From positions 29,341 to 93,340 of the IMG/VR virus record IMGVR_UViG_3300033688_000038: DNA of 64,000 nucleotides; one strand, 5' to 3'. Below are positions 12,182 to 62,786 of the stretch, one piece after another. The notes beneath the pieces were generated by a model. That model saw only the letters and a list, made by a program, of their open reading frames with translations, did not search any database and had not been told where the DNA came from. The DNA is from a virus. The stretch's first letter is position 1. Every line of letters begins with the position of its first letter. Made by a program: the position numbers and the translations under genes.

Positions 12182-12210
12182 TATACAACAATAACAGTAA
12201 AAAACTCACA
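12182..12210 (-). promoter_or_regulatory. Putative late promoter TGTGAG-N16-TTGTATA
   Basis: One of six intergenic copies of the same bipartite motif. Confidence 0.75.
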
Positions 12211-20150: not shown

Positions 20151-20178
20151 TATACAATAAATTAATGAAAAACTCACA
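20151..20178 (-). promoter_or_regulatory. Putative late promoter TGTGAG-N15-TTGTATA
   Basis: Motif copy immediately after the nozzle stop and upstream of the 1814-aa gene. Confidence 0.75.
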
Positions 20179-32619: not shown

Positions 32620-32647
32620 TATACAAAGCTTAACTAATAAACTCACA
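32620..32647 (-). promoter_or_regulatory. Putative late promoter TGTGAG-N15-TTGTATA for the adaptor/tail operon
   Basis: Motif copy directly downstream of a terminator. Confidence 0.75.
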
Positions 32648-33062: not shown

Positions 33063-33091
33063 TATACAATAATTTTCCGAAAAAGCTCACA
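33063..33091 (-). promoter_or_regulatory. Putative late promoter TGTGAG-N16-TTGTATA
   Basis: Motif copy upstream of the 78-aa membrane gene. Confidence 0.75.
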
Positions 33092-36987: not shown

Positions 36988-37015
36988 TATACAAAATATT
37001 ACAAGAAAGCTCACA
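36988..37015 (-). promoter_or_regulatory. Putative late promoter TGTGAG-N15-TTGTATA
   Basis: Motif copy upstream of the 152-aa gene. Confidence 0.75.
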
Positions 37016-39466: not shown

Positions 39467-39467
39467 A

Positions 39468-46100: not shown

Positions 46101-48213
46101 TTTGTGATTCCATCTTAGGAGTCTCTAAGATATTAATGTCAAGTGTTCCATCAACAAGTGTTGACTTTTTATTACTACCACTTATTTTAATCTTTTTAAC
46201 TTGACCTTCAGTACCATCACCAATTACACCTACAATACTATTAGTAGTTTGATCTGGTACATTAATGGTTAAGATGCCCTTGTTGATACTTGTAGTTTCA
46301 TTCTTAGTAATTTTGATTTGAGAAATAGGGGTAACTGCTCCATCACCAATCCTAGCTTCTTGTCCTTTAATATATAAAGTTTTCTTATCAGTACCTTCAT
46401 ACACACTGTTAATAGCGTCTGCTTTTATAGTATTAATAGGTTTAACACTGCCATTACCAATCTTAGAGTCTAAAATCTTAGTATCTAATAAATTGATACT
46501 TAATCTACCACCTGAGATAGTAGAACCTGTTGTCTTACCTGTAAGCCTAATTTTGGTAACAGGAGTAGTTGTCCCAGTTCCAATCTGAGCAGAGATTTGA
46601 TCTTGTGAGATAACCTCAACTGTAGCTGCATTAGGTACAACATTTCCTTGTGTATCATAAGAGTCAGATACAGTAACACCTTTACCTTTAAATCTAATCT
46701 CACTAAGTCCAGTCTTAACATCAGTAGGAGTACTAATAGTTGTGGTTTTTGATATTTTCATTGTAGGTAGAGCTTTTACAGAAATAACTTTTGTATTATC
46801 AGCACCTACTTTAGATATTAAACCAAAACCAATAGAGTCAAATTCTAATTGATCTACCTCTGGGAATACAGAGCCAACAGTTTTATCATCAGATACAATT
46901 AACTTCTTAGTTATAGTACTAGTTTCTTTAAAATCAAGAGTTAATATTCCACCCTCAATTGAAGTTCCAGCACCATAAGCACCTTTGATAGCAATCTCAG
47001 TAATAGGTTGAGCAGAGTCTACACTATTGAAACCCCAACGATCACCTGAGCTTGTCCACTTCTCATCACCCGACCACTTCTTACGGAAAGTCTTAGTGTG
47101 TAATGGATTACCAGTAAGTGAATCACTGAAAGTTTGAATACTCTCTTGTACATCTTCTATAGCAGGATTCCATTTATTATTTCCAATCCAGTTAGCTGGT
47201 TCATCCCATGTGTTACGAGGAGAAGTACCATTACCAGTATCTGGGTCCCACTTATTATCACCAATCCATGTCTCAGGTTCATTCCACAGAGTTCTATCTT
47301 GAAGCCTGATATCGCTCCACTTATTACTACCAACCCATGTGTCAGGTTCACCCCACACTGATTTACCTAAATCTTCACCTTTGTAAATCCAGTTCTCTAG
47401 GTCAAACCAGTCTTCTCTGTCACTCCATAAAGCTATTTGTTCTTCTGGTACATCTTCTAGATTCTTACCAACAAGAGTAGCATTAAAATGAGGTATTTTA
47501 AGATTAAGTGTATTATCCGTGACACTAGTACTAGCTGTATTACCAGAGATAATCATATTATCATAATGTTCTGGCTTTAAAGCAGCACCAACTGTTACCA
47601 TTTTATTTGGGATATCAAGTGTTAATGTACCATCACCTATCCTACATAAATCAGAATCACCTGTAATCTCTAGTTTGTTTATATGACCAGAAGCACCTGT
47701 ACCATCTGGTTTCTTAATTTCTGTTGATAGTGATGTTTTAGCACTAACTTCAATAGTAAGATGAGTTGGTTCATCTTTATCTGGTTGTGTAATTGAAGCA
47801 CCTGGGAAGTTAAGAAAATCAGCTACATAATTCTTAGTTCCATTTCCAACGTGAATAGAACCGCCTCCACCTCCACCTCCTGTAAACATAGGTGAGAAGT
47901 CACACTCTGATTGAACACCAGAGTTATTATATAAAGTAAAAGTTTTAGTTGGACCATCTACATGGCACTGTACAAAAGACTTCTTTGTAATAATAGTATT
48001 CTTAGAGACTGTTGGTTCTAGATAATCTAACCTAGATTGAAACTTATTAATAATAGTTTTATTACTTTGTATTTCACTTGCCATTGACTTCATTTGTAAA
48101 TCTGAAGCAGCAGCTTTTATTTCAAGATCATTCACCTTTAAAATAGCAGGGTTTAACGAACCTGTACGTATGGTCTTTTTTAAATCACCATTATTAAAAA
48201 CAGGGATTGCCAT
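43114..48213 (-). CDS. Giant repeat-rich appendage (putative head-fibre) protein, 1699 aa
   Basis: Many ~40-45-aa beta modules ('A.IG.G...PI.KI.I....S.I..G.L.INI'); Trp-rich insert; N-terminal '[16 protein letters not shown]' resembles the shared anchor. Confidence 0.7.
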
Positions 48214-48231
48214 TGTTATACTCCTTAAACG

Positions 48232-48270
48232 AAAAAAGGGGGTAAGACTGAATTAACAATCTTACCCCCT
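48232..48270 (-). terminator. Strong rho-independent terminator ending the MCP array
   Basis: 11-bp stem AGGGGGTAAGA/TCTTACCCCCT followed by a T-tract on the - strand. Confidence 0.9.
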
Positions 48271-48291
48271 AATTGGAGTATAACCTAATGG

Positions 48292-48426
48292 TTATTTTTT
48301 AAGTTTTCCCTTCACCACAGGTGTTTTATCAACTGAAGGTCCAACTTCTACAACTGAAGGCTTAACCCTAACAGTCTTTGTAGCTAAAGTTGGATCTACT
48401 GTTGGTGGAGGGTTTACGCCTTTTTT
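48292..48426 (-). other. Putative programmed -1 frameshift (A AAA AAG) giving MCP-8 a 42-aa extension
   Basis: Heptamer at 48426-48420 just before the stop; the -1 frame reads GVNPPPTVDPTLATKTVRVKPSVVEVGPSVDKTPVVKGKLKK* to 48292 and ends 22 nt before the terminator stem. Confidence 0.7.
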
Positions 48427-49337
48427 ACTTCAAGTACACCTGAAGCGAAAGGGTTGCGGTGACGAAGACCTACTTCCATCTCGATCATCCACTTCTCATA
48501 GCTGCCATCTTTAGCTAGCTTAGTACGCTCTGGAGAACGTAGAACCATTTGAGTCCAATCAGATGGAGTGAAGAAGTAAATTGCATCTTCTGGCATCCAA
48601 CGGTTAGGCATTAATTTGTACTCTTGACCTAGTGGGTCTACTAGAGTAGAAACAAATACACTGAACTTAGGAGTGTTCTCAAAGATACGCTGACGAGAAC
48701 CATCACCTTTCTCTTGCAATGCAGAGAATAAAGATGCATGCTTAGGGTGGAACATGATAATGTTCGCATTAGAGCCTGCAAGGTAAAGGTTATAAGTCAA
48801 ACCAAAGATGTCAACTTCTGTAAGAGTTGCACCAGCAGTTTCTGTATGCACAACAGCACCAGTGTCTGTATCAGCAACAGCTTTAGCAGCAACTAATCCA
48901 CGGAAACCTGAAGTCTCACGAGCAACGCCGTTAGAGCCATCAACTTTAGCGATTTGAGTTAGGAATGCATGCTCTAGGTCACGCTTGATTTCTGTACCAG
49001 CTTTTTCCATTTGATATTGAAGCTCTTTACCACGACCGTAGTTTGCTAATGCGTTAGCTGTGTCAGATACTTTAACTACTTTACGTAGAATCTGTGTCAC
49101 GTTGTTATGTACAGTGGTCATCTTTGGTAAGCCGCCTTCAACAGCAGTTTCACCTTCAGCGATAGCATTCTTAGAAACTGGGTTCAGTGCATCTGACTGC
49201 CACTGGAACAAAGTATTCTGGATAGACTCTTTACCAGTCATTGAAGTGAAAGGAGTTTCAGCTGGAGATAGATTAGAAATCCAGTTAGCAAAACTTAATT
49301 TTTTACCGTTTAGGTCATAAGATTGTAGAGTAGCCAT
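48414..49337 (-). CDS. Major capsid protein paralogue 8: bare core, probably the main MCP, 307 aa
   Basis: SU10/phiEco32-type (DUF5309) MCP motifs 'SYDLNGKKLSFANWIS', 'TQILRKVVKVSDTA', 'LAKDGSYEKWMIEMEVGLRHRNP'; own promoter; AGAGGA SD. Confidence 0.92.
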   Translation of the reverse strand: MATLQSYDLNGKKLSFANWISNLSPAETPFTSMTGKESIQNTLFQWQSDALNPVSKNAIAEGETAVEGGLPKMTTVHNNVTQILRKVVKVSDTANALANYGRGKELQYQMEKAGTEIKRDLEHAFLTQIAKVDGSNGVARETSGFRGLVAAKAVADTDTGAVVHTETAGATLTEVDIFGLTYNLYLAGSNANIIMFHPKHASLFSALQEKGDGSRQRIFENTPKFSVFVSTLVDPLGQEYKLMPNRWMPEDAIYFFTPSDWTQMVLRSPERTKLAKDGSYEKWMIEMEVGLRHRNPFASGVLEVKKA

Positions 49338-49355
49338 ATTTAGTAATTCCTCTTT

Positions 49356-49399
49356 TTAAGAAGCTGAACAGCTTCGGATAAGTGAGATATGATTCTCAC
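49356..49399 (-). promoter_or_regulatory. Two hairpins in the 5' leader of MCP-8
   Basis: GTGAGA-atcata-TCTCAC and GAAGCTG-tt-CAGCTTC lie between the promoter and the SD. Confidence 0.45.
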
Positions 49400-49416
49400 A
49401 TTGGATACAAGATAAG

Positions 49417-49444
49417 TATACAACAATTTATGGAAAAACTCACA
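49417..49444 (-). promoter_or_regulatory. Putative late promoter TGTGAG-N15-TTGTATA dedicated to MCP-8
   Basis: Motif copy in the 139-nt gap between MCP-7 and MCP-8. Confidence 0.8.
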
Positions 49445-49476
49445 TAATATATAAAAATAAATTAATATATTATTTT

Positions 49477-50562
49477 TCACCCATAGGGTTTGGTTAAAAG
49501 TGGGATAGTGTTGTCATCAGCAGTTGATTTGATAACTAATACACCTGAAGAGAATGGATTTCTATGTCTAAGACCTACTTCCATTTCTACCATCCACTTT
49601 TCATATGAACCATCTTTAGCAAGCTTGGTGCGCTCTGGTGGTCTTAAAACCATCTGAGTCCAGTCATGAGGAGCAAAGAAGTAGATAACAGATTCAGGCA
49701 TCCATCGATTAGGGATCAACCGATACTCTTGTCCTAATGGATCTACTAGAGTAGAAACATAAGCAGATACCATTGGTGTGTTCTCAAACATACGGACACG
49801 TGTAGAAGCCTTCTCTTGTAATGCACTGAAAGTAGATGCCCATCTTGGATGGAACATAATAATATTAGCACTAGAACCAGCTAAATAAAGATTATAAGTC
49901 ATAGAGAAAATATCTGACTCTTTGACTTCATTACCAATAATATTAGCATCAGGTGATACAAGATTAGTAATACCAAAAACAGTACGAGCACCTGTATCAG
50001 GGTCTGACCAACCATCAATACCTCTACCTGTTTTAGGATCAGGATTTGTGACAGGGTCTGTTAACTTCTTAATACCCTTAAGAGTCATCTTCTTATCTAT
50101 TTCACTTAATGGACTAGCACATAGAGCTATAAAACCAGCAGTCTCTCTAGGATCTGCTCTAGTCTCAGCTTTAGAATCAGCATTGTTCATGAACGTCCAT
50201 TCTAAATCACGTTTAATCTCTTTACCTGCCTTTTCCATTTGATACTGTAATTCTTTACCTCTTCCATAGTTAGAAAGGGCATTGGCAGTATCTGAAATCT
50301 TAACAGTTTTACGTAAGATTTGTGTAATATTAGATCTGACTGTTGTAGTTTTTAAAGCAGAGTCCTTAGCAATATCACCTTCTATCATAGCATTCTTTAC
50401 AGCTTTGTTTAATGAATCATTCTGCCATTGGAATAGTGTTTGAGAGATAGCCTCTTTACCCGTCATAGAACTAAAAGGTGTCTCCTCAGGAGATAGATTA
50501 GAAATCCAATTAGCGAATGATAACTTCTTACCATTCAGATCATAAGATTGTAATGTTGACAT
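49477..50562 (-). CDS. MCP paralogue 7: ~25-aa internal insertion, no Ig domain, 361 aa
   Basis: All core motifs present; insertion 'SEIDKKMTLKGIKKLTDPVTNPDPKTGRGIDG'. Confidence 0.88.
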   Translation of the reverse strand: MSTLQSYDLNGKKLSFANWISNLSPEETPFSSMTGKEAISQTLFQWQNDSLNKAVKNAMIEGDIAKDSALKTTTVRSNITQILRKTVKISDTANALSNYGRGKELQYQMEKAGKEIKRDLEWTFMNNADSKAETRADPRETAGFIALCASPLSEIDKKMTLKGIKKLTDPVTNPDPKTGRGIDGWSDPDTGARTVFGITNLVSPDANIIGNEVKESDIFSMTYNLYLAGSSANIIMFHPRWASTFSALQEKASTRVRMFENTPMVSAYVSTLVDPLGQEYRLIPNRWMPESVIYFFAPHDWTQMVLRPPERTKLAKDGSYEKWMVEMEVGLRHRNPFSSGVLVIKSTADDNTIPLLTKPYG

Positions 50563-50581
50563 ATAATATTATCCTCAGGAG

Positions 50582-50597
50582 AGGGGGCGAACCCCCT
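50582..50597 (-). other. Intercistronic UUCG-loop hairpin between MCP-6 and MCP-7
   Basis: AGGGGG-TTCG-CCCCCT with no U-tract. Confidence 0.7.
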
Positions 50598-50605
50598 TTC
50601 AGTTA

Positions 50606-51949
50606 TTAAACCACAGAAACAGTTACAGTACCAGTTCTTGCTAACTCAACACCACTTTTATCTTGGTATGAGATGTAGTAATCACCACTATGTTGTGATG
50701 TAGCACCATGAGTAATCACAAAACCAGTAGCTCTTACAGTATCACCCTTCTCAGTCCAACGACCAGCTTCATGTCCATTCATAACTAACACTGTCATATC
50801 AGTAGCAATTATAGTGTGGGTTGCTTTGACAGCAGCAGCTGGATCTGGAATAGTTGCTTTTGTTTTTCTATCAAAGCTAATCTGACTTCCACGCTTAACA
50901 TCTACATGGAAATGTTCTTTCTTTTTAATATCCATATTAACAACAGCAGAAGTGCCAGGTTTAATATAATCAAAAGTAGCCTTCTCCCAAGCATTATCAT
51001 AAACTGGATCATCAGAACTGTCAATGTCTAGAACACCTGCTGCAAATGGATGGCGTAGACGTAGACCTACTTCCATTTCAATCATCCATTTTTCATATGA
51101 ACCATCTTTAGCAAGCTTGGTTCTTTCAGGTGGACGTAAAACCATTTGAGTCCAGTCAGAAGGATTGAAGAAGAATACATGACCTTCTGGCATCCATCGA
51201 TTAGGAATCAATTTATATTCTTGACCTAAAGGATCTACTAATGTAGAAACATAAACAGAAATCTTAGGAGTGTTGTGGAACATACGCTCTCTTGTACCAT
51301 CTGATTTCTCTTGTAGTGATGAGAATAAAGATGCATGCTTAGGATGGAACATGATGATACTAGCTTTAGAGCCAGATAAGTATAGATTATATGTTAAATC
51401 AAAAATATCATCTTCTGTAAGAGTACCAGTTGTTTTCACACTCTTGTGAACCATAGCACCAGTATCAATATCAGCAGTACCAATTGGTGAAACAAGACCT
51501 AAGAAACCAGCAGTTTCACGTGGGATTCGAGTACCCACTGTGTCTGTGTGTTCTTGTTGTGAGTTACCATTATGTAGGAATGCCCACTCAATATCACGTT
51601 TAATCTCTTTACCAGCTTTTTCCATCTGGTATTGTAATTCCTTACCCCTGCCATAGTTAGCAAGCGCGTTAGCAGTATCAGAGACCTTAACAGTTTTACG
51701 AAGAATCTGAGTTACGTTAGAACGTACTGTAGTTGAACGTAATGAAGCATCAATTGCCTCATCACCCTCTTTGACAGCATTTCTACCCGCTTTAATTAGT
51801 GAGTCATTCTGCCATTGAAACAAAGTCTGTGATACAGTTTCTTTACCAGTCATTGATGTGAAAGGTGTTTCTTCTGGTGATAAATTAGAAATCCAGTTAG
51901 CAAAACTTAGTTTTTTACCATTTAGATCATAAGATTGTAATGTTGCCAT
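50606..51949 (-). CDS. MCP paralogue 6 with C-terminal Ig-like domain, 447 aa
   Basis: Core motifs plus 'VMNG...QHSGDYYI...TVTVSV'. Confidence 0.88.
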   Translation of the reverse strand: MATLQSYDLNGKKLSFANWISNLSPEETPFTSMTGKETVSQTLFQWQNDSLIKAGRNAVKEGDEAIDASLRSTTVRSNVTQILRKTVKVSDTANALANYGRGKELQYQMEKAGKEIKRDIEWAFLHNGNSQQEHTDTVGTRIPRETAGFLGLVSPIGTADIDTGAMVHKSVKTTGTLTEDDIFDLTYNLYLSGSKASIIMFHPKHASLFSSLQEKSDGTRERMFHNTPKISVYVSTLVDPLGQEYKLIPNRWMPEGHVFFFNPSDWTQMVLRPPERTKLAKDGSYEKWMIEMEVGLRLRHPFAAGVLDIDSSDDPVYDNAWEKATFDYIKPGTSAVVNMDIKKKEHFHVDVKRGSQISFDRKTKATIPDPAAAVKATHTIIATDMTVLVMNGHEAGRWTEKGDTVRATGFVITHGATSQHSGDYYISYQDKSGVELARTGTVTVSVV

Positions 51950-51973
51950 AAATTATTTTCCTCTTGTAAAGTA

Positions 51974-51991
51974 GTGGGGATTTCTCCCCAC
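51974..51991 (-). other. Intercistronic GAAA-loop hairpin (possible leaky terminator) between MCP-5 and MCP-6
   Basis: GTGGGGA-GAAA-TCCCCAC followed by TACTTT. Confidence 0.7.
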
Positions 51992-51998
51992 ATTTGTC

Positions 51999-53330
51999 TT
52001 ACTTAACTGTGATGTTAATAACAGCTGATTTAGCTAAAGCCTTACCATCTTTATCCATATACATTAGGTAGTAATCACCATTGTGTTTTGATGCTGTGTC
52101 GTATGAATACTTGAACTCTAAATCAGAAGTACCAATACCAGTCCAACGTCCACTCTCTTTTCCATTGAAGTAGATACAAGTGATGTCAGTAGCTGCAGGT
52201 GTAGCGGTCTTAGCTGAATTTGATGGGATAGTTGATTTTGTTTTTCTCTTAAAGATAAGTTGAGTACCAGGTTTAACATCAATGTGTTGTGGGTTTACCT
52301 CTGCTTTTAAATCTAAAGTAGATACATTTGTATCTCCAGATTTAACATATTTAAGCTCCATTGTCTCCCAAGCTTTTGCACCCATATCAGGGTTATCACC
52401 ATGAGCTACGTCAAGAACACCAGCTGCGAATGGATGACGTAAACGCAATCCAACTTCTGTCTCGATCATCCACTTCTCGTAAGAACCATCTTTAGCAAGT
52501 TTAGTACGCATTGGAGCACGAAGAACCATCTGAGTCCAGTCGCTAGGGTTCAAGAAGAAGATAGAACCTTCAGGCATCCAACGGTTTGGAATCAACTTAA
52601 ACTCTTGCCCTAATGGGTCAACTAGTGTAGAAACATAAACAGAAAGCTTAGGTGTGTTCTCAAACATACGAACACGAGTAGGAGATTTCTCTTGTAGAGC
52701 ACTGAAAGCAGCAGCCCACTTAGGGTGGAACATGATAATGTTTGCACTTGAACCTGCTAGGTATAAATTGTATGTTAGGTCAAAAATATCTGACTCAGTT
52801 AATTTATTATCAGTTACTACTTTTTTATGTACAACAGCACCTGTATCTGGATCAGTGTTATCAATGTGAGCCACAAGACCTAAGAAGCCAGCAGTTTCAC
52901 GAGGTTGACGAACACCACTTTGATCTGTGTATTCAGCACGAGAGGCTTCATTATTCAAGAACGCCCATTCTAGGTCACGCTTTAGTTCAGAACCTGCCTT
53001 CTCCATTTGGTACTGAAGCTCTTTGCCTCGACCATAGTTAGCAAGAGCGTTAGCGGTATCAGATACCTTAACAGTTTTACGTAGGATTTGTGTAAGGTTA
53101 GAACGTACAGTAGTTGCTCGTAGTGAACCATCTGTAGCTTCGATACCCTCAACGATTGCGTTCTTACCAGCTTTAGATAGCGCATCATTCTGCCATTGGA
53201 ATAGTGTTTGGGTGATTGACTCTTTGCCAGTCATTGAAGTGAAAGGTGTCTCCTCAGGAGATAGATTAGAAATCCAGTTAGCAAAACTTAGTTTTTTACC
53301 ATTTAGATCATAAGATTGTAGAGTAGCCAT
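51999..53330 (-). CDS. MCP paralogue 5 with C-terminal Ig-like domain, 443 aa
   Basis: Core motifs plus 'YFNG...KHNGDYYL...INITVK'. Confidence 0.88.
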   Translation of the reverse strand: MATLQSYDLNGKKLSFANWISNLSPEETPFTSMTGKESITQTLFQWQNDALSKAGKNAIVEGIEATDGSLRATTVRSNLTQILRKTVKVSDTANALANYGRGKELQYQMEKAGSELKRDLEWAFLNNEASRAEYTDQSGVRQPRETAGFLGLVAHIDNTDPDTGAVVHKKVVTDNKLTESDIFDLTYNLYLAGSSANIIMFHPKWAAAFSALQEKSPTRVRMFENTPKLSVYVSTLVDPLGQEFKLIPNRWMPEGSIFFLNPSDWTQMVLRAPMRTKLAKDGSYEKWMIETEVGLRLRHPFAAGVLDVAHGDNPDMGAKAWETMELKYVKSGDTNVSTLDLKAEVNPQHIDVKPGTQLIFKRKTKSTIPSNSAKTATPAATDITCIYFNGKESGRWTGIGTSDLEFKYSYDTASKHNGDYYLMYMDKDGKALAKSAVINITVK

Positions 53331-53345
53331 GTTTTATATCTCCTA

Positions 53346-54728
53346 TTAACCTTTCATATGAAAGTATACAGATTTTGATTGTTTTTTATATGTTGGATTC
53401 GCTGAATCAGTTAAGATTAACAAATAGTTTCCAACATTCTTTGATGAAGCCACACTTGTGATGACAAACTCAGTATCCTTGTCACTAGTGATTGTTTCTC
53501 TTGCTAAGTAGACTCCATCCTTATAAAGGGAGACCACATTCCAAGTTGCAGACTCAGCAGTGTCAGCTTTACCTGATGGAGCTGGTGGATCTGGTTTTGG
53601 TGGTGGTGGTGGATCTTCCTTTTTATACTTCTTAATTTTGAAAGATAACTTATCTCCAGTAACATAAGGAACATCAATACCATATTCTCCAAGACCACCA
53701 AGCATATCAATCTCAGTGGAATCTGTTAAAGATCTACCCTCGATGATTAAAGATGTTACATCAACATCCTTTTTGATATGAACATTATCAGTGGTATCTA
53801 GGATACCTGCAGCAAAAGGGTTTGATAATCTTAAACCAAGCTCAGCTTCGATCATCCATTTTTCATATGAACCATCTTTAGCAAGCTTAACGCGAGATGG
53901 TGGTCTTAATAACATTTGTGTGAAATCACTAGCCTTGAAGAAGAAAATCTTCTCTTCTGGCATCCAACGATTAACAACCAATTTATGTGTTGCACCAAAC
54001 ATATCAACTAATGTAGAAACATATACTGATAATTTAGGTGTATTCTCAAAGATTCTTCTTCGTGAAGCTTCTTCAGGTTTCCCACCATCAGCTGGTCTTT
54101 CTTGTAGTGCTGAGAAATATGATGCCCATTTAGGGTGGAACATAATAATATCTGTCTCAGAACCAGCAATGTAAAGATTATGAATAATATTGAAAATATC
54201 CATATCCTCAAAAACGCCATCAGCTTTACCAGTACTTTGATGTACAATGGCTCCAGTTTCAAAATCAACAGCACCAAGAGGTGCCACCAACCCAGCAAAA
54301 CCAGCAGACATCCTTCCATGCTCATCTGTTTCATCAGATGCTAGTTCATTGTTCAAAAGAGCCCATTCGATATCCCGTTTAAGTTCTTCTGCTGCATTCT
54401 CTAGCTGGTATTTAACTTCCTCTGTTCTACCATAGTTTTCAGTAGCATTAGCAGTATCAGAGATACTAATAACCTTACGGAGGATTTGAGTCATGTTAGA
54501 TTTAGTATCAGTGTGACCAACATTACCAGACACAGCATCATCACCTTCAGAGTTAACATTACGACCTGCTACTGCAAGGTTATCAGTCTGCCACTGAAAG
54601 ATAGTTTGATTTGTAGCCTCTTTTCCAGTCATAGATGAAAAAGGTGTATCTATTGGAGCTATTGTTGAGATCCAATTGGCAAAACTTAACTTCTTGCCAT
54701 TCAGATCATAAGATTGTAAAGTAGACAT
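53346..54728 (-). CDS. MCP paralogue 4 with C-terminal Ig-like domain and Pro-rich loop, 460 aa
   Basis: Core motifs plus 'DPPPPPKPDPPAP', 'LYKDG' and 'NVGNYLL'. Confidence 0.88.
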   Translation of the reverse strand: MSTLQSYDLNGKKLSFANWISTIAPIDTPFSSMTGKEATNQTIFQWQTDNLAVAGRNVNSEGDDAVSGNVGHTDTKSNMTQILRKVISISDTANATENYGRTEEVKYQLENAAEELKRDIEWALLNNELASDETDEHGRMSAGFAGLVAPLGAVDFETGAIVHQSTGKADGVFEDMDIFNIIHNLYIAGSETDIIMFHPKWASYFSALQERPADGGKPEEASRRRIFENTPKLSVYVSTLVDMFGATHKLVVNRWMPEEKIFFFKASDFTQMLLRPPSRVKLAKDGSYEKWMIEAELGLRLSNPFAAGILDTTDNVHIKKDVDVTSLIIEGRSLTDSTEIDMLGGLGEYGIDVPYVTGDKLSFKIKKYKKEDPPPPPKPDPPAPSGKADTAESATWNVVSLYKDGVYLARETITSDKDTEFVITSVASSKNVGNYLLILTDSANPTYKKQSKSVYFHMKG

Positions 54729-54736
54729 ACTTTCTC

Positions 54737-56164
54737 CTATGATTTATATCTTAAGTGCATACCATCTGTTAGTTCAACTAACGCACCATCTGCACTAGAA
54801 CCTACAAGAACATAAGTACCTGCATCAGAAGGAGAAGCCTTCTCAGAAATAATAAATTCCTCAGAGGCAGCACCATCAACAGATGTTAATTTATGGTTCA
54901 TAATAATCTGACCATCTTTGATAAGTTTAAAAGAAGCCACTACTATGTTAGCAGGAAGTTCAGAATTCTTCTTAGATTGAACTTTTAGTTTAAGAGGTTT
55001 ACCAGGGATTAAATTAAACTCAGAATCCTTATTAAAATCACCACTATGTAGCACACTCTGAGAAATCTTTTTAACTTTAAAGATTGGCTTCTGTGCAGGG
55101 GTAAGGGGTTTAGATTTAATAGCATCATCAGAGCCAATCCAAAGCACACCAGAGCCATAAGGGTTTGCGTGTTGTAATCCAACCTCTGCTTCAATCATCC
55201 ACTTCTCTGAAGAACCTTTCTTAGATAGTTGAGTTCGTTTAGGTTGACGAAGAACCCTTTGTGTCCAATCTTTAGGATCAAAGAAGTAAATAAGATGAGT
55301 GGGCATCCAACGATTAGGGATCAACATGTAAGTTTGACCTAATGGGTCTGTTACTTCATTCACAAAAAGAGAAACCTTATCTGTGTTCTCAAAAAGTCTT
55401 GTTCTTTTACTAAGTGTAGGAGTCTCTGGAGCACCACCAGAATATATAACATTTGGTGATTCTTGTAGAGAACTAAAAAACTTAGCTTGACTTGGATGAT
55501 ACATAATAGTGTTAGCATCAGAACCTGACAAATATAAATTATAAGTCATTGTCCAGAGTTTACTTTCTGTAAGTTCCTCACTTACCCAAATATCTGGGCT
55601 AAAATTAGGTGAGTGATCTGCCATAGTAGTATCTCTTGTAAAGAAGTTCACAACAGCACCAGTTTCAGGGCAAGGTGTATTAGCAGGGGCTACCAAAGGA
55701 TAGAACCCAGCTGTTAATCTAACACCCTCTTCCACAGGAGCACCAGCAGAATCAAGAGATGATTCATCATGAGAGCCTGCTTTATTATTCAGGAATGCCC
55801 ATTCAATATCACGCATTAACTCTGTACCAGCTTTAGTCATTTGATACTCAAGTTCTTTACCTCTACCATAATTAGATAGGGAGTTAGATGTATCAGAAAC
55901 CTTAATCACTTTACGAAGGATTTGAGTTACATTACTCTGATCAAGTGTAACGTAAGCATCATCCTCAACAGCAGATGAACCCTCTAGTACAGCATTATCT
56001 TCTACTCTATCTAGATTATCAGTTTGCCACTGAAAGGTGATTTGATCTGTTGGTACTTTTTTAGTCATTGAAGTAAAAGGAGTCTCCTCTGGGGAGATAT
56101 TACTAATCCAATTAGCAAATGATAACTCTTTGCCGTTCAGATCATAAGAATGAATTGTAGCCAT
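54737..56164 (-). CDS. MCP paralogue 3 (most divergent core) with Ig-like domain, 475 aa
   Basis: Variant motifs 'IHSYDLNGKELSF' and 'LSKKGSSEKWMIEAEVGLQHANPYG'; three loop insertions; 'IKDG...SDAGTYVL'. Confidence 0.85.
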   Translation of the reverse strand: MATIHSYDLNGKELSFANWISNISPEETPFTSMTKKVPTDQITFQWQTDNLDRVEDNAVLEGSSAVEDDAYVTLDQSNVTQILRKVIKVSDTSNSLSNYGRGKELEYQMTKAGTELMRDIEWAFLNNKAGSHDESSLDSAGAPVEEGVRLTAGFYPLVAPANTPCPETGAVVNFFTRDTTMADHSPNFSPDIWVSEELTESKLWTMTYNLYLSGSDANTIMYHPSQAKFFSSLQESPNVIYSGGAPETPTLSKRTRLFENTDKVSLFVNEVTDPLGQTYMLIPNRWMPTHLIYFFDPKDWTQRVLRQPKRTQLSKKGSSEKWMIEAEVGLQHANPYGSGVLWIGSDDAIKSKPLTPAQKPIFKVKKISQSVLHSGDFNKDSEFNLIPGKPLKLKVQSKKNSELPANIVVASFKLIKDGQIIMNHKLTSVDGAASEEFIISEKASPSDAGTYVLVGSSADGALVELTDGMHLRYKS

Positions 56165-56166
56165 TA

Positions 56167-57576
56167 TTACTCCTTAGCTTTCTTTGCTCGTGGTTTACGT
56201 TGAGGTTTTACTTCAACAACTTCAGTTTGGATTTCATCAGCCTTTGTATAAGGTTGAGCATCAACTTTAAGTCCATAAGATTCTGTCTGTTCTACATACT
56301 TGTAGTTAGTTCCAACGGCAGTCTTCTTCAAACCAATAGCATAATAAATACCAGCATCTTTTGTATCAACAGATTCTGAGATTACATGAGTGAATGTATC
56401 ACCTGCTGTTGTAGATACAGGTAATTTAGATGCGTACAAAATATCATCTTTATATAAGTCAATATAATCCACTTTTGCAACTGGTGCTTTTAATGTAATG
56501 ACAAACTTAGAACCAGCTGTTAGTTTACCAGTGTTCTCTGTATAAGAAGCTGGTTCAATCTCATCAGTCCCAGCACTACCTGTTTTATATACTACATCGG
56601 TAATATTTGCAACAATAGGTGCAGCAGGTTTTATCATTAATAGACCTGAAGAGTAAGGATTAACATGTCGTAAACCAACCTCCATTTCTACCATCCACTT
56701 CTCGTAAGAACCATCTTTAGCAAGTTGTGTTCTCTGTGGTTCTCTTAATAAAACTTGAGACCAGTTATCAGGATTAAAGATATAAACAGCATCATCTGGC
56801 ATCCAACGATTGGGGATTAGCTTAAACTCTTGTCCCAGTTGATCTACTAATGTAGAAACATATACTGATAGTTTAGGTGTGTTATTAAACATACGTTGTC
56901 TATTTGTAACTGGGTTTCCATCTAAACCTTTATACGTACCTTGACTCTCTTGTAAAGAACTAAAGAATGATGCCCATTTAGGATGGTACATAATAGTATC
57001 AGCCTCAGAGCCTGCTGTATATAAAGAGAATAGTAAATGGAAGATATCTAACTCACTAATTGAATTAGGATTAGCAGTCTCCATAGTCGTAATAGCACCT
57101 GTCTCAGGACAAGGCATATTCAGTGGAGCAACTAATCCGCGATAACCAGCAGTCTTTCGAGGGGTTGTTCCATCAACATCTTGCTCAGCACTCTTATTAG
57201 TTAATAGCGCATACTCAAGGTCACGTTTAATCTCTTTACCAGCTTTCTCAAGTTGATATTTAACCTCTTTATCTCTACCGTAGGTATCTAGAGCATTTGC
57301 AGTATCAGAGATCTTAACTACTTTACGTAAGATTTGAACTGTGTTACTTTTTGTACTAGTTGATCGTAGTGGGACAGATTGAGCTCTATCACCTTCACCA
57401 TGAACATTACGACCAGCCTGTTGCAATGAATCGGTTTGCCATTGGAAAACTACCTGGTTTGTTTTATCCTTTCTTGTCATTGAAGAGAAAGGACAATCCA
57501 TTGGAGATAGGTTACTAATCCAATTAGCAAATGATAATTTCTTACCATTTAAATCATAAGATCTTAAAACAGACAT
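56167..57576 (-). CDS. MCP paralogue 2 with Ig-like domain and basic tail, 469 aa
   Basis: Core motifs plus 'LYKDD...KDAGIYYA' and tail 'VVEVKPQRKPRAKKAKE'. Confidence 0.88.
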   Translation of the reverse strand: MSVLRSYDLNGKKLSFANWISNLSPMDCPFSSMTRKDKTNQVVFQWQTDSLQQAGRNVHGEGDRAQSVPLRSTSTKSNTVQILRKVVKISDTANALDTYGRDKEVKYQLEKAGKEIKRDLEYALLTNKSAEQDVDGTTPRKTAGYRGLVAPLNMPCPETGAITTMETANPNSISELDIFHLLFSLYTAGSEADTIMYHPKWASFFSSLQESQGTYKGLDGNPVTNRQRMFNNTPKLSVYVSTLVDQLGQEFKLIPNRWMPDDAVYIFNPDNWSQVLLREPQRTQLAKDGSYEKWMVEMEVGLRHVNPYSSGLLMIKPAAPIVANITDVVYKTGSAGTDEIEPASYTENTGKLTAGSKFVITLKAPVAKVDYIDLYKDDILYASKLPVSTTAGDTFTHVISESVDTKDAGIYYAIGLKKTAVGTNYKYVEQTESYGLKVDAQPYTKADEIQTEVVEVKPQRKPRAKKAKE

Positions 57577-57585
57577 AACTTCCCC

Positions 57586-58902
57586 TTACAAATCGATAGC
57601 GACAGTTCCACCAATATTTAGTGTGATACCTGGAGTGACATCTTTATTAACAGAAGTAATAGCAGATACGGAGTATAATCCAGCATGTTCAGCAGTAGCT
57701 ACATCTGTAATCTTAATCTCAAGAGCTGCATCTTTACCACCTGCAATATACTCTTGTGTAATTAAAGGTACACCATTTTTATTAATAACAATTGTCACAG
57801 GCTTACCAGCAGTAGCATCTGCTTTAAGTTTCAACTTAACGATTAGTGGTTTACCAGGTTTATGAGTAGCAATACCATCTCCAGCTTTACCAAAAATAAG
57901 TGACTTAGCAGTATCACCTGTAACATCTTCAACAGTATGTAAAGTTGGGCTATCATCCACTGCAGTACCTACACCATTAAAGATTTTGTAGAAATCAGCA
58001 CCTTTCTTAGTTGTAAGAACACCTGCTGCGAATGGATGGCGTAGACGTAAACCTACTTCCATTTCAATCATCCACTTCTCATATGAACCATCTTTAGCAA
58101 GTTGTACACGAGTTGGTTCACGAAGTACCATTTGTGTAAAATCTTCTGGACGGTAGAAGAATACCTTATCAGTTGGCATCCAACGATTTGGTAGTAATTT
58201 ATATTCTTGACCTAAAGGATCAACCAACGTCGATACATGTAGGTTAACTTTATCTGTATCTTCAAACATACGAATACGAGTTGCTGATTCTTGTAACATA
58301 CTAAAACGATAAGCCCAGTTAGGGTGATACATGATAATATTAGCTTTAGAACCACTTAAGTATAACTGGTAAGTCATATCAAAAAGTTCAGCTTCTGTGA
58401 ATTCTCCACCTGCTAGTTCTTTATAAACAACAGCACCTGTCTCAGGGCAACTAGAGTTTAGTGGAGCAACAAGTCCTGAAAAGCCAGCAGTCTCACGTGG
58501 GTCTGTAACTTTAGCAGTGCTTTGATTCAAGAATGTCCACTCTAAATCACGCTTAATCTCTTTACCTGCTTTTTCCATCTGATAAGCTAATTCCTTACCA
58601 CGACCATAGTTGTCGGTAGCATTTGCAGTGTCTGATACTTTAACTACTTTACGTAAGATTTGAGTTACGTTAGTACGAACAGTTGTAGTATTCATTACAC
58701 CTTCAGTAGCCTTTGTACCTTCTAATGCTGCATTCTTTTTAGCCTTAGTCAGTGAGTCGTTTTGCCATTGGAATAAGCACTGCTCAACAGATTCTTTTGC
58801 TGTCATTGAGACAAACGGACAATCTTGAGGAGAGATAGTACTAATCCAATTAGCAAATGATAACTTCTTACCATTAAGTTCATAAGATTTTAATGTAGCC
58901 AT
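57586..58902 (-). CDS. MCP paralogue 1 with Ig-like domain, 438 aa (start MATLKSY)
   Basis: AAGGAAG SD before 58902; the start aligns with the other seven copies; 'NKNG...EHAGLYSV'. Confidence 0.88.
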   Translation of the reverse strand: MATLKSYELNGKKLSFANWISTISPQDCPFVSMTAKESVEQCLFQWQNDSLTKAKKNAALEGTKATEGVMNTTTVRTNVTQILRKVVKVSDTANATDNYGRGKELAYQMEKAGKEIKRDLEWTFLNQSTAKVTDPRETAGFSGLVAPLNSSCPETGAVVYKELAGGEFTEAELFDMTYQLYLSGSKANIIMYHPNWAYRFSMLQESATRIRMFEDTDKVNLHVSTLVDPLGQEYKLLPNRWMPTDKVFFYRPEDFTQMVLREPTRVQLAKDGSYEKWMIEMEVGLRLRHPFAAGVLTTKKGADFYKIFNGVGTAVDDSPTLHTVEDVTGDTAKSLIFGKAGDGIATHKPGKPLIVKLKLKADATAGKPVTIVINKNGVPLITQEYIAGGKDAALEIKITDVATAEHAGLYSVSAITSVNKDVTPGITLNIGGTVAIDL

Positions 58903-59241
58903 ATAATATGTCTTCCTTGTATTATGCCAATCACGAAGATTGGTAATCGACAATAATCTTAATAAATTGGACTACAATGGAAGGCCAAACTTAATAATTA
59001 TTGACTTGATCTGTATAGATAAAAATAAATCTAGTATACAGGTAATGTTGTTATAAGTTTTATATAGTAGGGGTTTGTAACTAATGAGGTTTTATTCGAT
59101 GATATTTGAATTCTAATCTATACGTGAGTGTATAGTATTAGATAATATAATAGAACAGACTGATACAAATACAACTGTATAGAATGAACATTATCTTTTT
59201 AAAGTTTAGAGATTGCTTACAGGGAGTAAGGTTCTCGAATA

Positions 59242-59317
59242 AAGGACTACTGGCGTAGCCCTTGTTCAGGTTTGTTGCGTGGGGCATCTTCGGGAGTTTA
59301 TAATGCCCTGCCCCACG
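59242..59317 (-). ncRNA. Candidate structured RNA element between the scaffold gene and the MCP array
   Basis: GC-rich island with a perfect 9-bp CGTGGGGCA/TGCCCCACG stem and an AAGGGCTAC-gcca-GTAGTCCTT hairpin. Confidence 0.35.
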
Positions 59318-59365
59318 TCTTATATTTCTTTTAAGTTGCACTCAAGGTAGCAATCACCTTATTTA

Positions 59366-60400
59366 TTAATCTTCTAGCATATCAAACATGTTACCAAGAT
59401 CTTGCTGATCAAAGCTACCAGTTTCCATACGCTTCTTCAGTACAGCCTTCTTGGTGTTACCTGCAGGTTTACTTGACTTAGCTACTGCTTTGACTACTTT
59501 CTTAGGTGAGCCAATCTTCTTAATCTTAGCTTTAACAACTTGTTTACCTTGGTCTAATTGTTTAGCTTTATACAAAGCTTTAAAAATACCAGGATCTACA
59601 CAAGTAGTAATGAAATCTTCTGTCATACCAATCGAGTGACCATACTTCATAAGTTCTGTATACAACTCTTTATTCCAACCAGGGATATCTTTAGAAAGAA
59701 TAGTATTTGATTCAGCGGCTTGACGTTGTTGAGTAGCTGCTTTTTCAGCACCCTCAGCTTCTTTAATCTTAACCATCTCAGAGTTAATCTCTTTTAAGCG
59801 AGACTTATAACGATCAAGGAATTCACGGTTCTCAACATAAGCACTAGGATCTTCTTTAGCCAGGCTAACAAAATCAAAATCTGAATAATCTTCTACTACT
59901 TTCTGAGCTTCCAATTGAGCTAACTCTAATAGTGATTTGATATCTTTAGATGTACCTTCAAATGTAGCACGCTCTTCTTCGAATGCAGCACGCTCTTCAG
60001 CAAGAGCAGCAGCAGAACGATAACCTTTGATTGCTTCATTAAGCTTAACCATAGAGCCATCAGGAAGTGTTACATCATACTCTTCAAAGTCAACTTCATC
60101 ACCATCTTCATCAGTAATTTCTGCATCACCATCTTCGTACTCTGCATCATCTTCATCTTCTTCAAACTCTTCTGTCTCTTCATCAGTCTCTTCTTCAGAT
60201 TCTACATCATCTTCATCTTCATCAATTGTATCAAAGTCAAAATCACTTTCATCAATACCTAAATCAGATAAATCATTATCATCAATATCTTCAATTGCTG
60301 CTGCTTCTGGAGTCACGATAGTATCTTCACTATCTAACTGACCAAAAATATCACCCATATCTTCAATGTACATGTCATTCATTTCAATATTCATACTCAT
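59366..60400 (-). CDS. Capsid scaffolding protein, 344 aa
   Basis: Very acidic N-terminus, 'YDVTLPDG..VKLNEAIKGY' motif, coiled coil, basic C-terminal stretch; lies between portal and MCP. Confidence 0.85.
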   Translation of the reverse strand: MSMNIEMNDMYIEDMGDIFGQLDSEDTIVTPEAAAIEDIDDNDLSDLGIDESDFDFDTIDEDEDDVESEEETDEETEEFEEDEDDAEYEDGDAEITDEDGDEVDFEEYDVTLPDGSMVKLNEAIKGYRSAAALAEERAAFEEERATFEGTSKDIKSLLELAQLEAQKVVEDYSDFDFVSLAKEDPSAYVENREFLDRYKSRLKEINSEMVKIKEAEGAEKAATQQRQAAESNTILSKDIPGWNKELYTELMKYGHSIGMTEDFITTCVDPGIFKALYKAKQLDQGKQVVKAKIKKIGSPKKVVKAVAKSSKPAGNTKKAVLKKRMETGSFDQQDLGNMFDMLED

Positions 60401-60406
60401 AAGTTG

Positions 60407-60628
60407 TTACTCCTCAAAATCGTAGTTATTTAAATTCTCCTGAAGCTTTTCATTTAGTCGTTTTAATGCTTTAGTTAGCATATAGAGTTCCTCACGTTTG
60501 GTCATTTCATCAGGGAGAGTCTCTACGATTTCAAGAGCTATATCTTGGTGTATCTCTCGGAGGAGGTCTTCTAAAAGACCACCCTCCATTAATTGTTTTA
60601 CTTTGCTAAACCGTTGGATATCATTCAT
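60407..60628 (-). CDS. Small helical protein between portal and scaffold, 73 aa
   Basis: Coding-like helical sequence ('KREELYMLTKAL') at a position where related podoviruses carry a small gene. Confidence 0.7.
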   Translation of the reverse strand: MNDIQRFSKVKQLMEGGLLEDLLREIHQDIALEIVETLPDEMTKREELYMLTKALKRLNEKLQENLNNYDFEE

Positions 60629-60644
60629 TTAATCAACCCCACTA

Positions 60645-62786
60645 TTAGCTTCGACCTAAACCCACAGGCCTGTTGTGTTTATTTTCTAGTTGAGCCTCAA
60701 TCATAATCTCTTGACGTTTAAGTTCAAGTTTATCTCTTTCTAATTGAAGCTTCATTTGTTCAATCTGTAACTTACGCTCTTCAACACCCATCTTATCAGC
60801 AGCCTCATCTTGTTTAGATAAAGACTCCTCTTTCCTCATAGCGAAATCATCAGCAGCTTTAACTTGTTCAAACTGTAGCTTTTGCTGAGCTTCTGTAATA
60901 TCAGAAAGGATTTTTTGTGTTGCTGCTTGTGTCTGCTTAATTGTCTCAGCAGCTGTTTGTAATGTAAGCTCTTGTAATGGATCAGGTTGTGGAGGAGGTA
61001 AATCCTCTAGAGGTGTTAGATAATTCTGTACATCAAAAATACCCATAGCTTCAAAGATTTGAGTAGCCATGTAGTATGAATTCTGAGGTTGGATAAACAT
61101 ACCTACCTGCGGAGACGATGCTGCAAGTTGCAATGCACCAGTTAGCATCTGAGCCCTTTCACGACGTTCATTATTTCCAACTGCAACTGCTACGATCATC
61201 TTATCACGTCTAGGTAGCATGTTAGGGAAAATAGTCATCGGACCTTTTACTGTTTCAACTAAAATAGGGTCTTTAGCATTCTCGCGAATAATACGATAAA
61301 TACCTAACATCAGACGTTTCATACCTTCCTCTGCGATGTTACGTGCTATCATTCTCATTCTGTTTTGTGCTGCTGACATCATTGTGTTTACTGTAGCAAA
61401 AGAGTTATCATTCTTTAATACATCGTTATTTAAACCCTGCCCTAATCTCGTGACACCAGTACGTTGTTCCTTTTTCTGTTCCACGTATTCTAGTAGGGTA
61501 ATATTACCTTGTGGTAAAGCATGATAAGGGAGCAGAGTAACTGCGCCTGGAGTTGTGATTTCTACTACACCACCTGGACGGCCTTCCAAGAGTGAGCGTT
61601 TATCATAACCACCTTTTAATCCTGTGTAACGACCAAAGTTTGCATTCATTGTATTATCAATAATACCACGAACTAGCATGGTGTTAAGGTTTTGAATATC
61701 TTTAGTAATATCTGTTACTGATTCTCCGAAAATGTTACCAGGTACAGGGAAGGGTGTAATCGTTTCAAATGGCATTTCATTAACACGGCTCACTTCCAAA
61801 ATCTGGTCATAGACAGTAAATACTTGTAGCATCTCTGTAGTTCCGCTTAATGCGGACGTCTTGATATAGTTCTCATACAGCCATACTCGATCTACCATAT
61901 CATCACCAACAGAAAAATTGTCACTAGGATTATACATTTGTGCTTCAACTGCACGGGCACTAGATGCTTGTCCACCATATAAATCAAGATTATCAGACCT
62001 TAAACCTTTAACAGTTTCTTCATCGAAACCCATTTCAATAAGTTCTTGTTTACTCTTTCTTACACGATGAGCAATGTAGTTAGCTTCCTGGATGCAAGTT
62101 GCAAGTGGATCAATGATAATCTGCTCGAAAGGTACATATTCAACCTTTACACCTTCAGTAGAGCGTTTGTATGTAACAGAACCTTCAAGAAGTTCTTGTT
62201 CTTCATACTTATCTAAATCCTTGCACACCTCATCATCAATAGTAACAGAGATTAATTCTCCATCAATTTGTGATAAGTACAACTCTAAATCATCTCTAGA
62301 GATTTCATCAAAAGTCTCAGTAAAGACTTCATCACCAACTCTCCAGTATCTTTTGAACCATGAATTACCAACAATGCAACTCTCTTTGAAAGCATCATGT
62401 AATGCACGGTATCCTCTATTATCTGTCAACAAAGCTTTATTAACAAGCTTAGTTGCTGCCTCTGCCGCAATAGCATCTTCTGTAGTGCGCGGCATAAACC
62501 TTACTGCATTCTCACCTGAAGTGAAAACACCAATCAATTCTTGTAGAGTACCATTAACAGCTTCCCATACAGAACGGTCAATCCATTTAGAAGAACCTTT
62601 TGTAATTGGCTCAGGGAGTCTACCGTAGTAGTAATCCCAAGACTCAACTGTACGAGTGGCTAACTCACCTTCGTGGTGATAAAAAGCTAACTCTTTGTGA
62701 CCATTCAACTGAACAGTCAAGTCGCTTAGTTGGTCTTCGGTCATAACAACATCACCATAAATAATTAATTCTTGTTCCATGACCAA
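60645..62786 (-). CDS. Portal protein, 713 aa
   Basis: Follows TerL; P22/SU10-like portal features ('WDYYYG', 'VEYVPFEQIIIDP', 'MPF..ITP.P.P....GES..D...DIQ', C-terminal coiled-coil barrel). Confidence 0.92.
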   Translation of the reverse strand: MVMEQELIIYGDVVMTEDQLSDLTVQLNGHKELAFYHHEGELATRTVESWDYYYGRLPEPITKGSSKWIDRSVWEAVNGTLQELIGVFTSGENAVRFMPRTTEDAIAAEAATKLVNKALLTDNRGYRALHDAFKESCIVGNSWFKRYWRVGDEVFTETFDEISRDDLELYLSQIDGELISVTIDDEVCKDLDKYEEQELLEGSVTYKRSTEGVKVEYVPFEQIIIDPLATCIQEANYIAHRVRKSKQELIEMGFDEETVKGLRSDNLDLYGGQASSARAVEAQMYNPSDNFSVGDDMVDRVWLYENYIKTSALSGTTEMLQVFTVYDQILEVSRVNEMPFETITPFPVPGNIFGESVTDITKDIQNLNTMLVRGIIDNTMNANFGRYTGLKGGYDKRSLLEGRPGGVVEITTPGAVTLLPYHALPQGNITLLEYVEQKKEQRTGVTRLGQGLNNDVLKNDNSFATVNTMMSAAQNRMRMIARNIAEEGMKRLMLGIYRIIRENAKDPILVETVKGPMTIFPNMLPRRDKMIVAVAVGNNERRERAQMLTGALQLAASSPQVGMFIQPQNSYYMATQIFEAMGIFDVQNYLTPLEDLPPPQPDPLQELTLQTAAETIKQTQAATQKILSDITEAQQKLQFEQVKAADDFAMRKEESLSKQDEAADKMGVEERKLQIEQMKLQLERDKLELKRQEIMIEAQLENKHNRPVGLGRS

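Follow-up and report, generated by a model that had tools for sequence, protein, structure and literature searches.

The window analyzed here (64,000 nucleotides, positions 29,341-93,340 of the 124,877-bp IMG/VR virus record IMGVR_UViG_3300033688_000038) contains eight consecutive open reading frames (ORFs) for major capsid proteins (MCPs), located on the minus strand at 48414-58902 in its ORF list. We confirmed that these eight genes are a real, intact tandem array, and a search of the whole 124,877-bp record revealed exactly these eight copies of the PF17236 type. It is the largest MCP array that we found and stands at the upper end of a series rather than alone, since related phages contain from one to seven such genes. 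By analogy with these relatives the array suggests a shell of many subunit types, an arrangement without a described example among tailed phages. We see about an even chance that the last copy, MCP-8, is the main subunit and that the other seven co-assemble with it as minor subunits, six of them displaying immunoglobulin (Ig)-like domains and MCP-7 forming a separate, older class. The copies, numbered by transcription order, are as follows:

57586-58902, minus strand: MCP-1, first gene of the array, 438 amino acids (aa) from an ATG start; PF17236 E value 2.3e-75
56167-57576, minus strand: MCP-2, 469 aa; PF17236 E value 5.7e-69
54737-56164, minus strand: MCP-3, 475 aa; PF17236 E value 3.4e-65
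53346-54728, minus strand: MCP-4, 460 aa; PF17236 E value 3.1e-65
51999-53330, minus strand: MCP-5, 443 aa; PF17236 E value 1.5e-80
50606-51949, minus strand: MCP-6, 447 aa; PF17236 E value 5.4e-81
49477-50562, minus strand: MCP-7, 361 aa; PF17236 E value 2.7e-76
48414-49337, minus strand: MCP-8, 307 aa; PF17236 E value 3.1e-78

All eight products match the Pfam family PF17236 (SU10_MCP, the SU10-type MCPs with the HK97 fold) with E values from 3e-65 to 5e-81 and scores of 221-273 bits, the curated cut-off being 24.1 bits. The matches span profile positions 5-7 to 288-290 of 292 in every copy, and all eight also match PHROG 1328 (major head protein). Residues 5-311 of MCP-5 were aligned with chain residues 8-348 of the solved SU10 gp9 (PDB 7z45) at an E value of 8e-101, with ~55% identity across the core; the cores of the other seven copies are 57-80% identical to that of MCP-5. 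About 110 alignment columns are invariant among the eight, and internal stops are absent from all of them. The invariant columns include the N-terminal motif and the core end 'EKWM.E.E.GL', so that the alignment bears out the preliminary description of this DNA, which had reported the motif and 'KWM.E.E.GL' in all copies; its count of eight consecutive intact ORFs of 307-475 aa likewise agrees with the ORF list and with both family matches. It should be mentioned that a longer frame of MCP-1 begins with TTG and extends to 58953; the ATG start is favoured by the alignment.

The window comes from a metagenome-derived contig, and many related contigs break within their arrays. An assembly chimera of co-occurring related phages, or a row of decaying duplicates, might be suspected for this reason, and we find either scarcely credible. 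All eight genes, in the same order and with the same neighbours, were found in two contigs from other samples and other assemblers, namely L057, assembled with MEGAHIT, and L058, a scaffold that occurs in four samples. Three more contigs (L053-L055) contain the last five MCP genes together with the gene for a 1699-aa protein that follows them. L057 and L058 represent a variant strain with 94.6-98.6% identity per gene; all eight frames are open in it, and three genes differ in length by one or two codons. Contig depth, which cannot rank the genes by expression, is similar along the array in three public data sets. The paralogues are 60-80% identical in their DNA and have no long exact repeats, so there is nothing in the array to collapse or mis-join. 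These observations, together with the purifying selection on each copy described below, confirm that the array is not an assembly chimera, an objection that had been called unlikely at the outset and can indeed be set aside. In a different contig (L049) we observed an MCP gene in two pieces (4944-6606; profile positions 46-120 and 129-309) lying ~840 nt apart, which could be due to an intron or a mobile insertion.

Comparison of the window with strain L057 revealed that all eight copies are under purifying selection and none is drifting, so that neutral drift, which the preliminary description had named as a possible refutation, does not apply. The ratio of nonsynonymous to synonymous substitution rates (dN/dS) is 0.04-0.23 for the whole genes, and neutrality was rejected for each of them (p from 5e-6 to 3e-17). 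By region, the values are 0.00-0.10 for the cores and 0.16-0.45 for the C-terminal parts. In MCP-1 they are 0.00 and 0.19 and in MCP-2 0.05 and 0.25, respectively; the cores of MCP-3 and MCP-4 have 0.10 and 0.03, the C-terminal part of MCP-6 evolves fastest (0.45), and the whole-gene values of MCP-7 and MCP-8 are 0.04 and 0.05.

Relative to the divergence of the two strains, the duplications are older by a factor of ten or more: the synonymous divergence (dS) between the strains is 0.05-0.18, and it exceeds 1.1 in all 28 pairs of paralogues, where the synonymous sites are saturated (proportion of synonymous differences, pS, 0.58-0.72). Identical residues of the paralogues share codons about as often as by chance (~0.5 vs a random expectation of 0.48), and thus the conservation is at the protein level. 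Recent gene conversion as the source of the near-identical N-termini was also considered and rejected, given a same-codon use of 0.61 in the N-terminal 20 codons against the expected 0.48 and the high dS in all pairs.

Among the relatives, the kuraviruses (SU10, phiEco32) and Privateer have one MCP gene, which a -1 frameshift at GGGAAAG extends onto an Ig-like domain, and both the MCP and the MCP-Ig fusion were found in the virions of SU10, phiEco32 and Privateer by mass spectrometry (PMC4281155, PMC7881722). The statement that phiEco32/SU10-like phages have one MCP gene therefore holds for the gene count of the kuraviruses, which nevertheless make two forms from it (PMC4281155, PMC7881722), and fails for other members of the group, where two, four, six and seven genes occur. 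The copy numbers in other phages and in uncultured relatives (contigs L056, L059, L060 and L061) are:

LAh_8 and Vp_R1 (112 kb): one MCP gene each
Salmonella 7-11, Cronobacter GAP52 and Aeromonas BUCT695: two tandem MCP genes each, one short and one long
Aeromonas APT65: four tandem MCP genes
L061 and L059: at least three MCP copies each, the array reaching the contig end
L060: five tandem MCP copies and one more beyond two esterase-type genes
L056: seven tandem MCP copies

In a collection of 50,697 phage records, which may leave out records very near the genome of the window, we found 301 records with 321 PF17236-type copies in all, and the maximum was the four copies of APT65. No relevant publication on multi-copy MCP arrays was found in the literature, and the earlier remark that an eight-member array had not been described thus stands. 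The many-copy phages cluster in the core tree (support 83/98), the deeper nodes of which are poorly supported.

Two of the uncultured relatives deserve separate mention. In L060 (13640-18229) the sixth MCP paralogue (328 aa) is parted from the five-gene array by proteins of 841 aa (with a faint match to SASA, sialate acetylesterase) and 345 aa, and it is followed by a 964-aa protein in which a faint SASA match is combined with a Laminin_G_3 domain. In L059 (2324-4167) the large terminase was called as two genes, for the N- and C-terminal domains, with a 210-nt gap between them and an HNH-type ORF nearby; the gene could be split or interrupted.

The paralogues differ from each other in a regular way. 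Their cores are 50-80% identical and their C-terminal parts 15-42%, and within the cores identity reaches 89% in the N-arm, ~80% in the spine helix and 80% in the last core strands vs 17-43% in the loops. To judge from the alignment, the lattice-forming parts are the ones conserved among the paralogues. Each product from MCP-1 to MCP-6 has a C-terminal domain of 136-158 aa fused in frame. That of MCP-1 comprises ~144 aa and is putatively of the beta-sandwich type; that of MCP-2 (~158 aa) ends in a basic tail; that of MCP-3 (~136 aa) follows the most diverged core, with loop insertions of its own and a long branch in the trees. In MCP-4 a proline-rich linker joins the core to the domain, and the domain of MCP-6 is 42% identical to the 139-aa domain of MCP-5.

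For the MCP-5 domain an Ig-like beta-sandwich is predicted. The AlphaFold2 model of residues 306-443 (mean predicted local distance difference test score, pLDDT, 83) is all-beta with ten strands, and Foldseek gave weak matches to the Ig-like sandwiches RhoGDI and PDE6D (template modelling score, TM, 0.42-0.48). The pattern D-x-G-x-Y, typical of Ig-like F strands, is conserved in tails homologous to this domain. The putative Ig-like assignment of the domains of MCP-1 to MCP-4 and MCP-6 was made solely by alignment. Pfam searches with the six C-terminal parts alone gave no match even at E values up to 10, and a Protein Atlas feature search with the MCP-5 tail gave scores of 0.76, below the useful range.

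The last two copies have a different structure. MCP-7 is without an Ig-like domain; a long loop is inserted behind its 'GF..LCA' motif, and its C-terminus reads 'KPYG'. Copies 6 and 7 of the seven-gene array of L056 contain the same insertion together with a 'PY[GAS]' end, and phiEco32 has an insertion at the same position; since these features are shared, the MCP-7 class predates the split of these phages, and MCP-7 appears to belong to a distinct, older class of subunits. The full-length AlphaFold2 model of MCP-7 (pLDDT 48.5) was unusable, and its insertion could not be equated with the annular loop of SU10. MCP-8 is a bare core with a mean identity of 68% to the single or first MCPs of relatives, vs 50-63% for the other copies.

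In T7 10B and phi29 gp8, sequences added to the C-terminus of an HK97-type MCP are known to be exposed on the shell exterior. Since this is so, and since kuravirus virions hold both the MCP and MCP-Ig, we propose, as the simplest account, a major MCP-8 with minor Ig-bearing subunits. The mosaic capsid suggested in the preliminary description is a plausible idea. MCP-8, the plain last copy, would be the main building block of the shell, and the other seven would be built, as minor components, into the same HK97-type lattice. MCP-1 to MCP-6 would each show a different Ig-like beta-sandwich outside the long head, so that the array may be regarded as a gene-array version of the kuravirus frameshift fusion. 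The Ig-like domains would probably help the phage to adhere weakly to glycans of the host or of mucus, and MCP-7 may act at a specific position in the shell. What we infer here is the co-assembly and stoichiometry of the subunits, the outward display of the domains and their binding, whereas the data show that the array is homologous to known MCPs, intact, under selection, old and recurrent.

The spacers and signals of the array bear on the proposed prominence of MCP-8. A Shine-Dalgarno-like motif is located 5-10 nt before the ATG in all eight copies (AAGGAAG in MCP-1). The gaps from MCP-1 to MCP-5 are 9, 2, 8 and 15 nt, in accordance with the reported packing of copies 1-5 at 2-15 nt, while the later ones are 49, 43 and 139 nt, and these last three spacers hold G+C-rich hairpins without T runs. 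The features concerned are:

51950-51998, minus strand: spacer of 49 nt separating MCP-5 from MCP-6; contains a G+C-rich hairpin (-13.4 kcal/mol) without a T run
50563-50605, minus strand: spacer of 43 nt separating MCP-6 from MCP-7; contains a G+C-rich hairpin (-12.1 kcal/mol)
49417-49444, minus strand: promoter-like motif TGTGAG-N15-TTGTATA in the 139-nt spacer directly upstream of MCP-8
12182-12210, 20151-20178, 32620-32647, 33063-33091, 36988-37015 and 49417-49444, minus strand: all copies of TGTGAG-N15/16-TTGTATA in the window
48237-48270, minus strand: strong intrinsic terminator closing the array after MCP-8, with a 14-bp stem, 7 G-C pairs and a subsequent T run
48292-48426, minus strand: possible -1 frameshift, with A_AAA_AAG at 48420-48426 in the last codons of MCP-8 and a stop of the -1 frame at 48292-48294

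The motif TGTGAG-N15/16-TTGTATA has six exact copies in the window (0.01 expected), all on the minus strand and all within the late structural module, and 12 copies in the 125-kb genome. It can be considered a candidate promoter for a phage-encoded sigma factor. No copy was found directly before any of the genes MCP-1 to MCP-7. The terminator after MCP-8 is conserved in strains L057 and L053. Thus, the layout fits a graded output in which MCP-8 would be expressed most highly. A scan for sigma-70-type promoters gave 59 sites (63 expected), and Rfam searches over 48200-60700 revealed nothing. The spacer between the scaffold gene and MCP-1 (58903-59365) is of interest in its own right: its 463 non-coding nt are unusually long and AT-rich, with a strong hairpin just after the scaffold gene, and neither an Rfam match nor a copy of TGTGAG-N15/16-TTGTATA was found in it.

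The kuravirus heptamer GGGAAAG is absent, and the A_AAA_AAG of MCP-8 is the sole slippery heptamer that lies in phase close to the end of a core. An AGGTG is located ~10 nt upstream of this heptamer, and the -1 frame after it is open for ~44 codons. The predicted 44-aa tail is rich in Pro, Val and Lys and resembles the in-frame tail of MCP-2 ('VVEV.P' and a basic end). The -1 frame is open in two strains, between which there are four differences, three changing a residue and one silent, a pattern that gives no sign of selection.

The prominence of MCP-8 also leads to a different explanation, namely that one copy, probably MCP-8, builds the shell and the others are decoys or shields against capsid-sensing defences, or alternative shells for different hosts. 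MCP-8 is indeed the most canonical copy and the only one directly preceded by the promoter-like motif, and evolution is faster in the C-terminal domains (dN/dS 0.16-0.45) than in the cores. However, the cores of the other seven copies are strongly constrained (dN/dS 0-0.10), and conservation falls on the same lattice-forming segments in each of the eight, as expected of assembling subunits. Furthermore, when the array was searched for inverted repeats and switch elements, nothing beyond short chance matches came up, and there is no sign of an invertible element. It can also be argued that extra MCP variants would give more, not fewer, triggers of abortive infection. For these reasons we consider this explanation improbable. 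The same holds for the earlier suggestion that the array diversifies the capsid against MCP-sensing defences: it is unlikely, by argument only, because more variants offer more targets to a sensor and the cores are the most conserved parts.

A third explanation, the main rival of the one preferred here, assigns the paralogues to defined places in a prolate shell (vertex pentamers, cap or tube hexamers, a portal-proximal ring), like gp23 and gp24 of T4 taken further. The SU10 shell contains two pentamer and six hexamer environments, and the main differences between its pentamer and hexamer subunits are located in the N-arm, E-loop and annular loop (PMC9509320). The differences between the paralogue cores, too, are concentrated in loops, and the insertion and 'PY[GAS]' end of MCP-7 are conserved in copies 6 and 7 of L056. 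On the other hand, similar heads are built by single-MCP relatives, including Vp_R1 (112 kb) and SU10 (PMC9509320), and therefore positional paralogues are not needed for this head geometry. In addition, the copy number varies from one to eight among the relatives with no clear link to genome size, six of the copies differ mainly in the external C-terminal domain and not in lattice contacts, and the insertion of MCP-7 could not be mapped onto the SU10 structure. Position-specific subunits are thus a possibility that we hold to be rather doubtful, as a general account of the array. They are not exclusive of the explanation preferred here, since MCP-7 could be positional while the Ig-bearing copies mix. 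A stricter form, in which each of the eight paralogues fills one quasi-equivalent environment (two pentamer and six hexamer environments in SU10, i.e., eight), with separate genes used instead of conformational switching and the set of copies helping to set head length, seems very improbable to us.

Several points weigh against the model of MCP-8 as the main subunit with seven co-assembling minor ones. Co-assembly is argued solely by analogy with kuraviruses, and the cryo-electron microscopy map of SU10 has no Ig density at all (PMC9509320). The fold matches between the MCP-5 domain and Hoc or viral Ig-like proteins are weak (E values from 4e-4 to 8e-3, TM 0.4-0.5 overall). The promoter-like sequence before MCP-8 is a motif, not a mapped promoter, and no RNA run contains the array. 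Finally, the core phylogeny does not separate ancient from lineage-specific duplication (approximately unbiased (AU) tests, p 0.12-0.30): neither a single clade of the eight window copies (p 0.13) nor a clade of MCP-7 with copies 6 and 7 of L056 (p 0.30) was rejected, the latter being compatible with the positional explanation as well. In favour of MCP-8 as the main subunit are its closeness to the single or first MCPs of relatives, the motif present directly upstream of this copy only, and the strong terminator after it.

The genes around the array have the order terminase, portal, small ORF, scaffold and MCP array. The terminase contains Terminase_6N and 6C domains, and the two other head genes are located as follows:

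60645-62786, minus strand: portal gene, PF23899 (SU10_portal), E value 2e-159
59366-60400, minus strand: gene of the head scaffolding protein, upstream of the array, PHROG 9013, E value 6e-93

The structural module is on the minus strand and the replication genes are on the plus strand. By its portal, scaffold, terminase and strand layout the phage can be grouped with the phiEco32/7-11-like long-headed podophages (Grimontviridae and kuraviruses). A scan of 185,579 prokaryote genomes gave no relatives of it.

Some further features of the genome should be mentioned. About 67 kb of the 125-kb record form a single minus-strand structural module, including four proteins of 1699-2965 aa; the 1699-aa protein encoded downstream of MCP-8 has no Pfam match. 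The record is classed as 'provirus', yet its ends encode a phage DNA polymerase, exonuclease, ligase and a sigma-70 decoy-like protein, and no host genes were found among the ORFs checked. Large fibre-type proteins are encoded downstream of the array at 33109-35277, 37028-39511 and 41435-43102. Two of them have Laminin_G_3 lectin-like ends (E values 7e-11 and 7e-9), one of these with a borderline SASA match (23.3 bits, cut-off 24.8), and the third contains collagen repeats. Such Laminin_G_3/SASA neighbours, found also in L060, fit a glycan-rich setting and prove nothing about the capsid domains.

The shells of tailed phages are usually described as many copies of one HK97-fold protein, with the two proteins of T4 as the classic exception. 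A plain MCP accompanied by an MCP-Ig variant was known already, as were tandem MCP paralogues. What is new is the size of the array, the variety of its fused domains (six different ones), the evidence that each copy is under selection, and an uncultured lineage with 6-8 copies. One phage lineage retains six to eight diverged capsid genes, each of which is under selection in the phage of the window, and the series from one to eight copies among the relatives is a ready comparative system. If the subunits co-assemble, the array would represent a natural multi-subunit HK97 lattice displaying several different Ig-like domains at once. It would then bear on the sorting of mixed subunits in assembly and the building of long prolate heads, as well as on the ligands of capsid-borne Ig-like domains and the design of multi-payload phage display.

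Comparison of the array with known systems revealed both common and distinct features. Gp9 of kuraviruses belongs to the same family (PF17236) and has the same neighbourhood (portal, scaffold, MCP), and gp9/gp9-gp10, like the array, combine a plain subunit with a version that has a C-terminal Ig-like sandwich. Kuraviruses achieve this with one gene and one Ig-like domain via the GGGAAAG frameshift, whereas the array has eight genes and six different domains in frame, and a kuravirus-type fusion by -1 frameshift at GGGAAAG does not occur in it. Slippage at the only slippery site found, located at the end of MCP-8, would yield a 44-aa tail instead of an Ig-like domain like that of gp9-gp10.

In 7-11, GAP52, BUCT695 and APT65, as in the array, tandem paralogues of the SU10-type MCP directly follow the scaffold gene, and a plain copy or copies occur together with a C-terminally extended one. 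These phages have 2-4 copies with the short one first and the long one last, whereas the array has eight with the long ones first and the plain one last. No study of their tandem MCP genes was found in the literature, although the arrays are annotated in the records.

The uncultured relatives (L056, L059, L060 and L061) belong to the same clade of the core tree and also have long Ig-bearing copies first, followed by short ones. In L056 tightly coupled long copies precede short copies separated by hairpins comparable to those of the array, and the long-loop 'LCA...PY' class of MCP-7 is present as well; the TGTGAG-N15/16-TTGTATA motif, in contrast, is absent from it. All these relatives have fewer copies than the array, some of their first copies (753-777 aa) are long enough for several domains, and their C-terminal domains can barely be aligned with those of the array.

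Among more distant phages, T4 builds one prolate shell from two HK97-fold paralogues encoded side by side, gp23 in hexamers and gp24 at vertices. T4 thus has two copies in fixed positions with no fused Ig-like domain (Hoc is separate), as opposed to eight genes and six fused domains in the array. Phi29 gp8 is an MCP with a C-terminal BIG2 Ig-like domain and T4 Hoc is an Ig-like decoration, both located outside a prolate head; the fold match between Hoc and the MCP-5 domain is weak (E value ~7e-3, TM 0.4). In both phages there is one type of Ig-like domain per phage, whereas the array encodes six different domains of this putative type.

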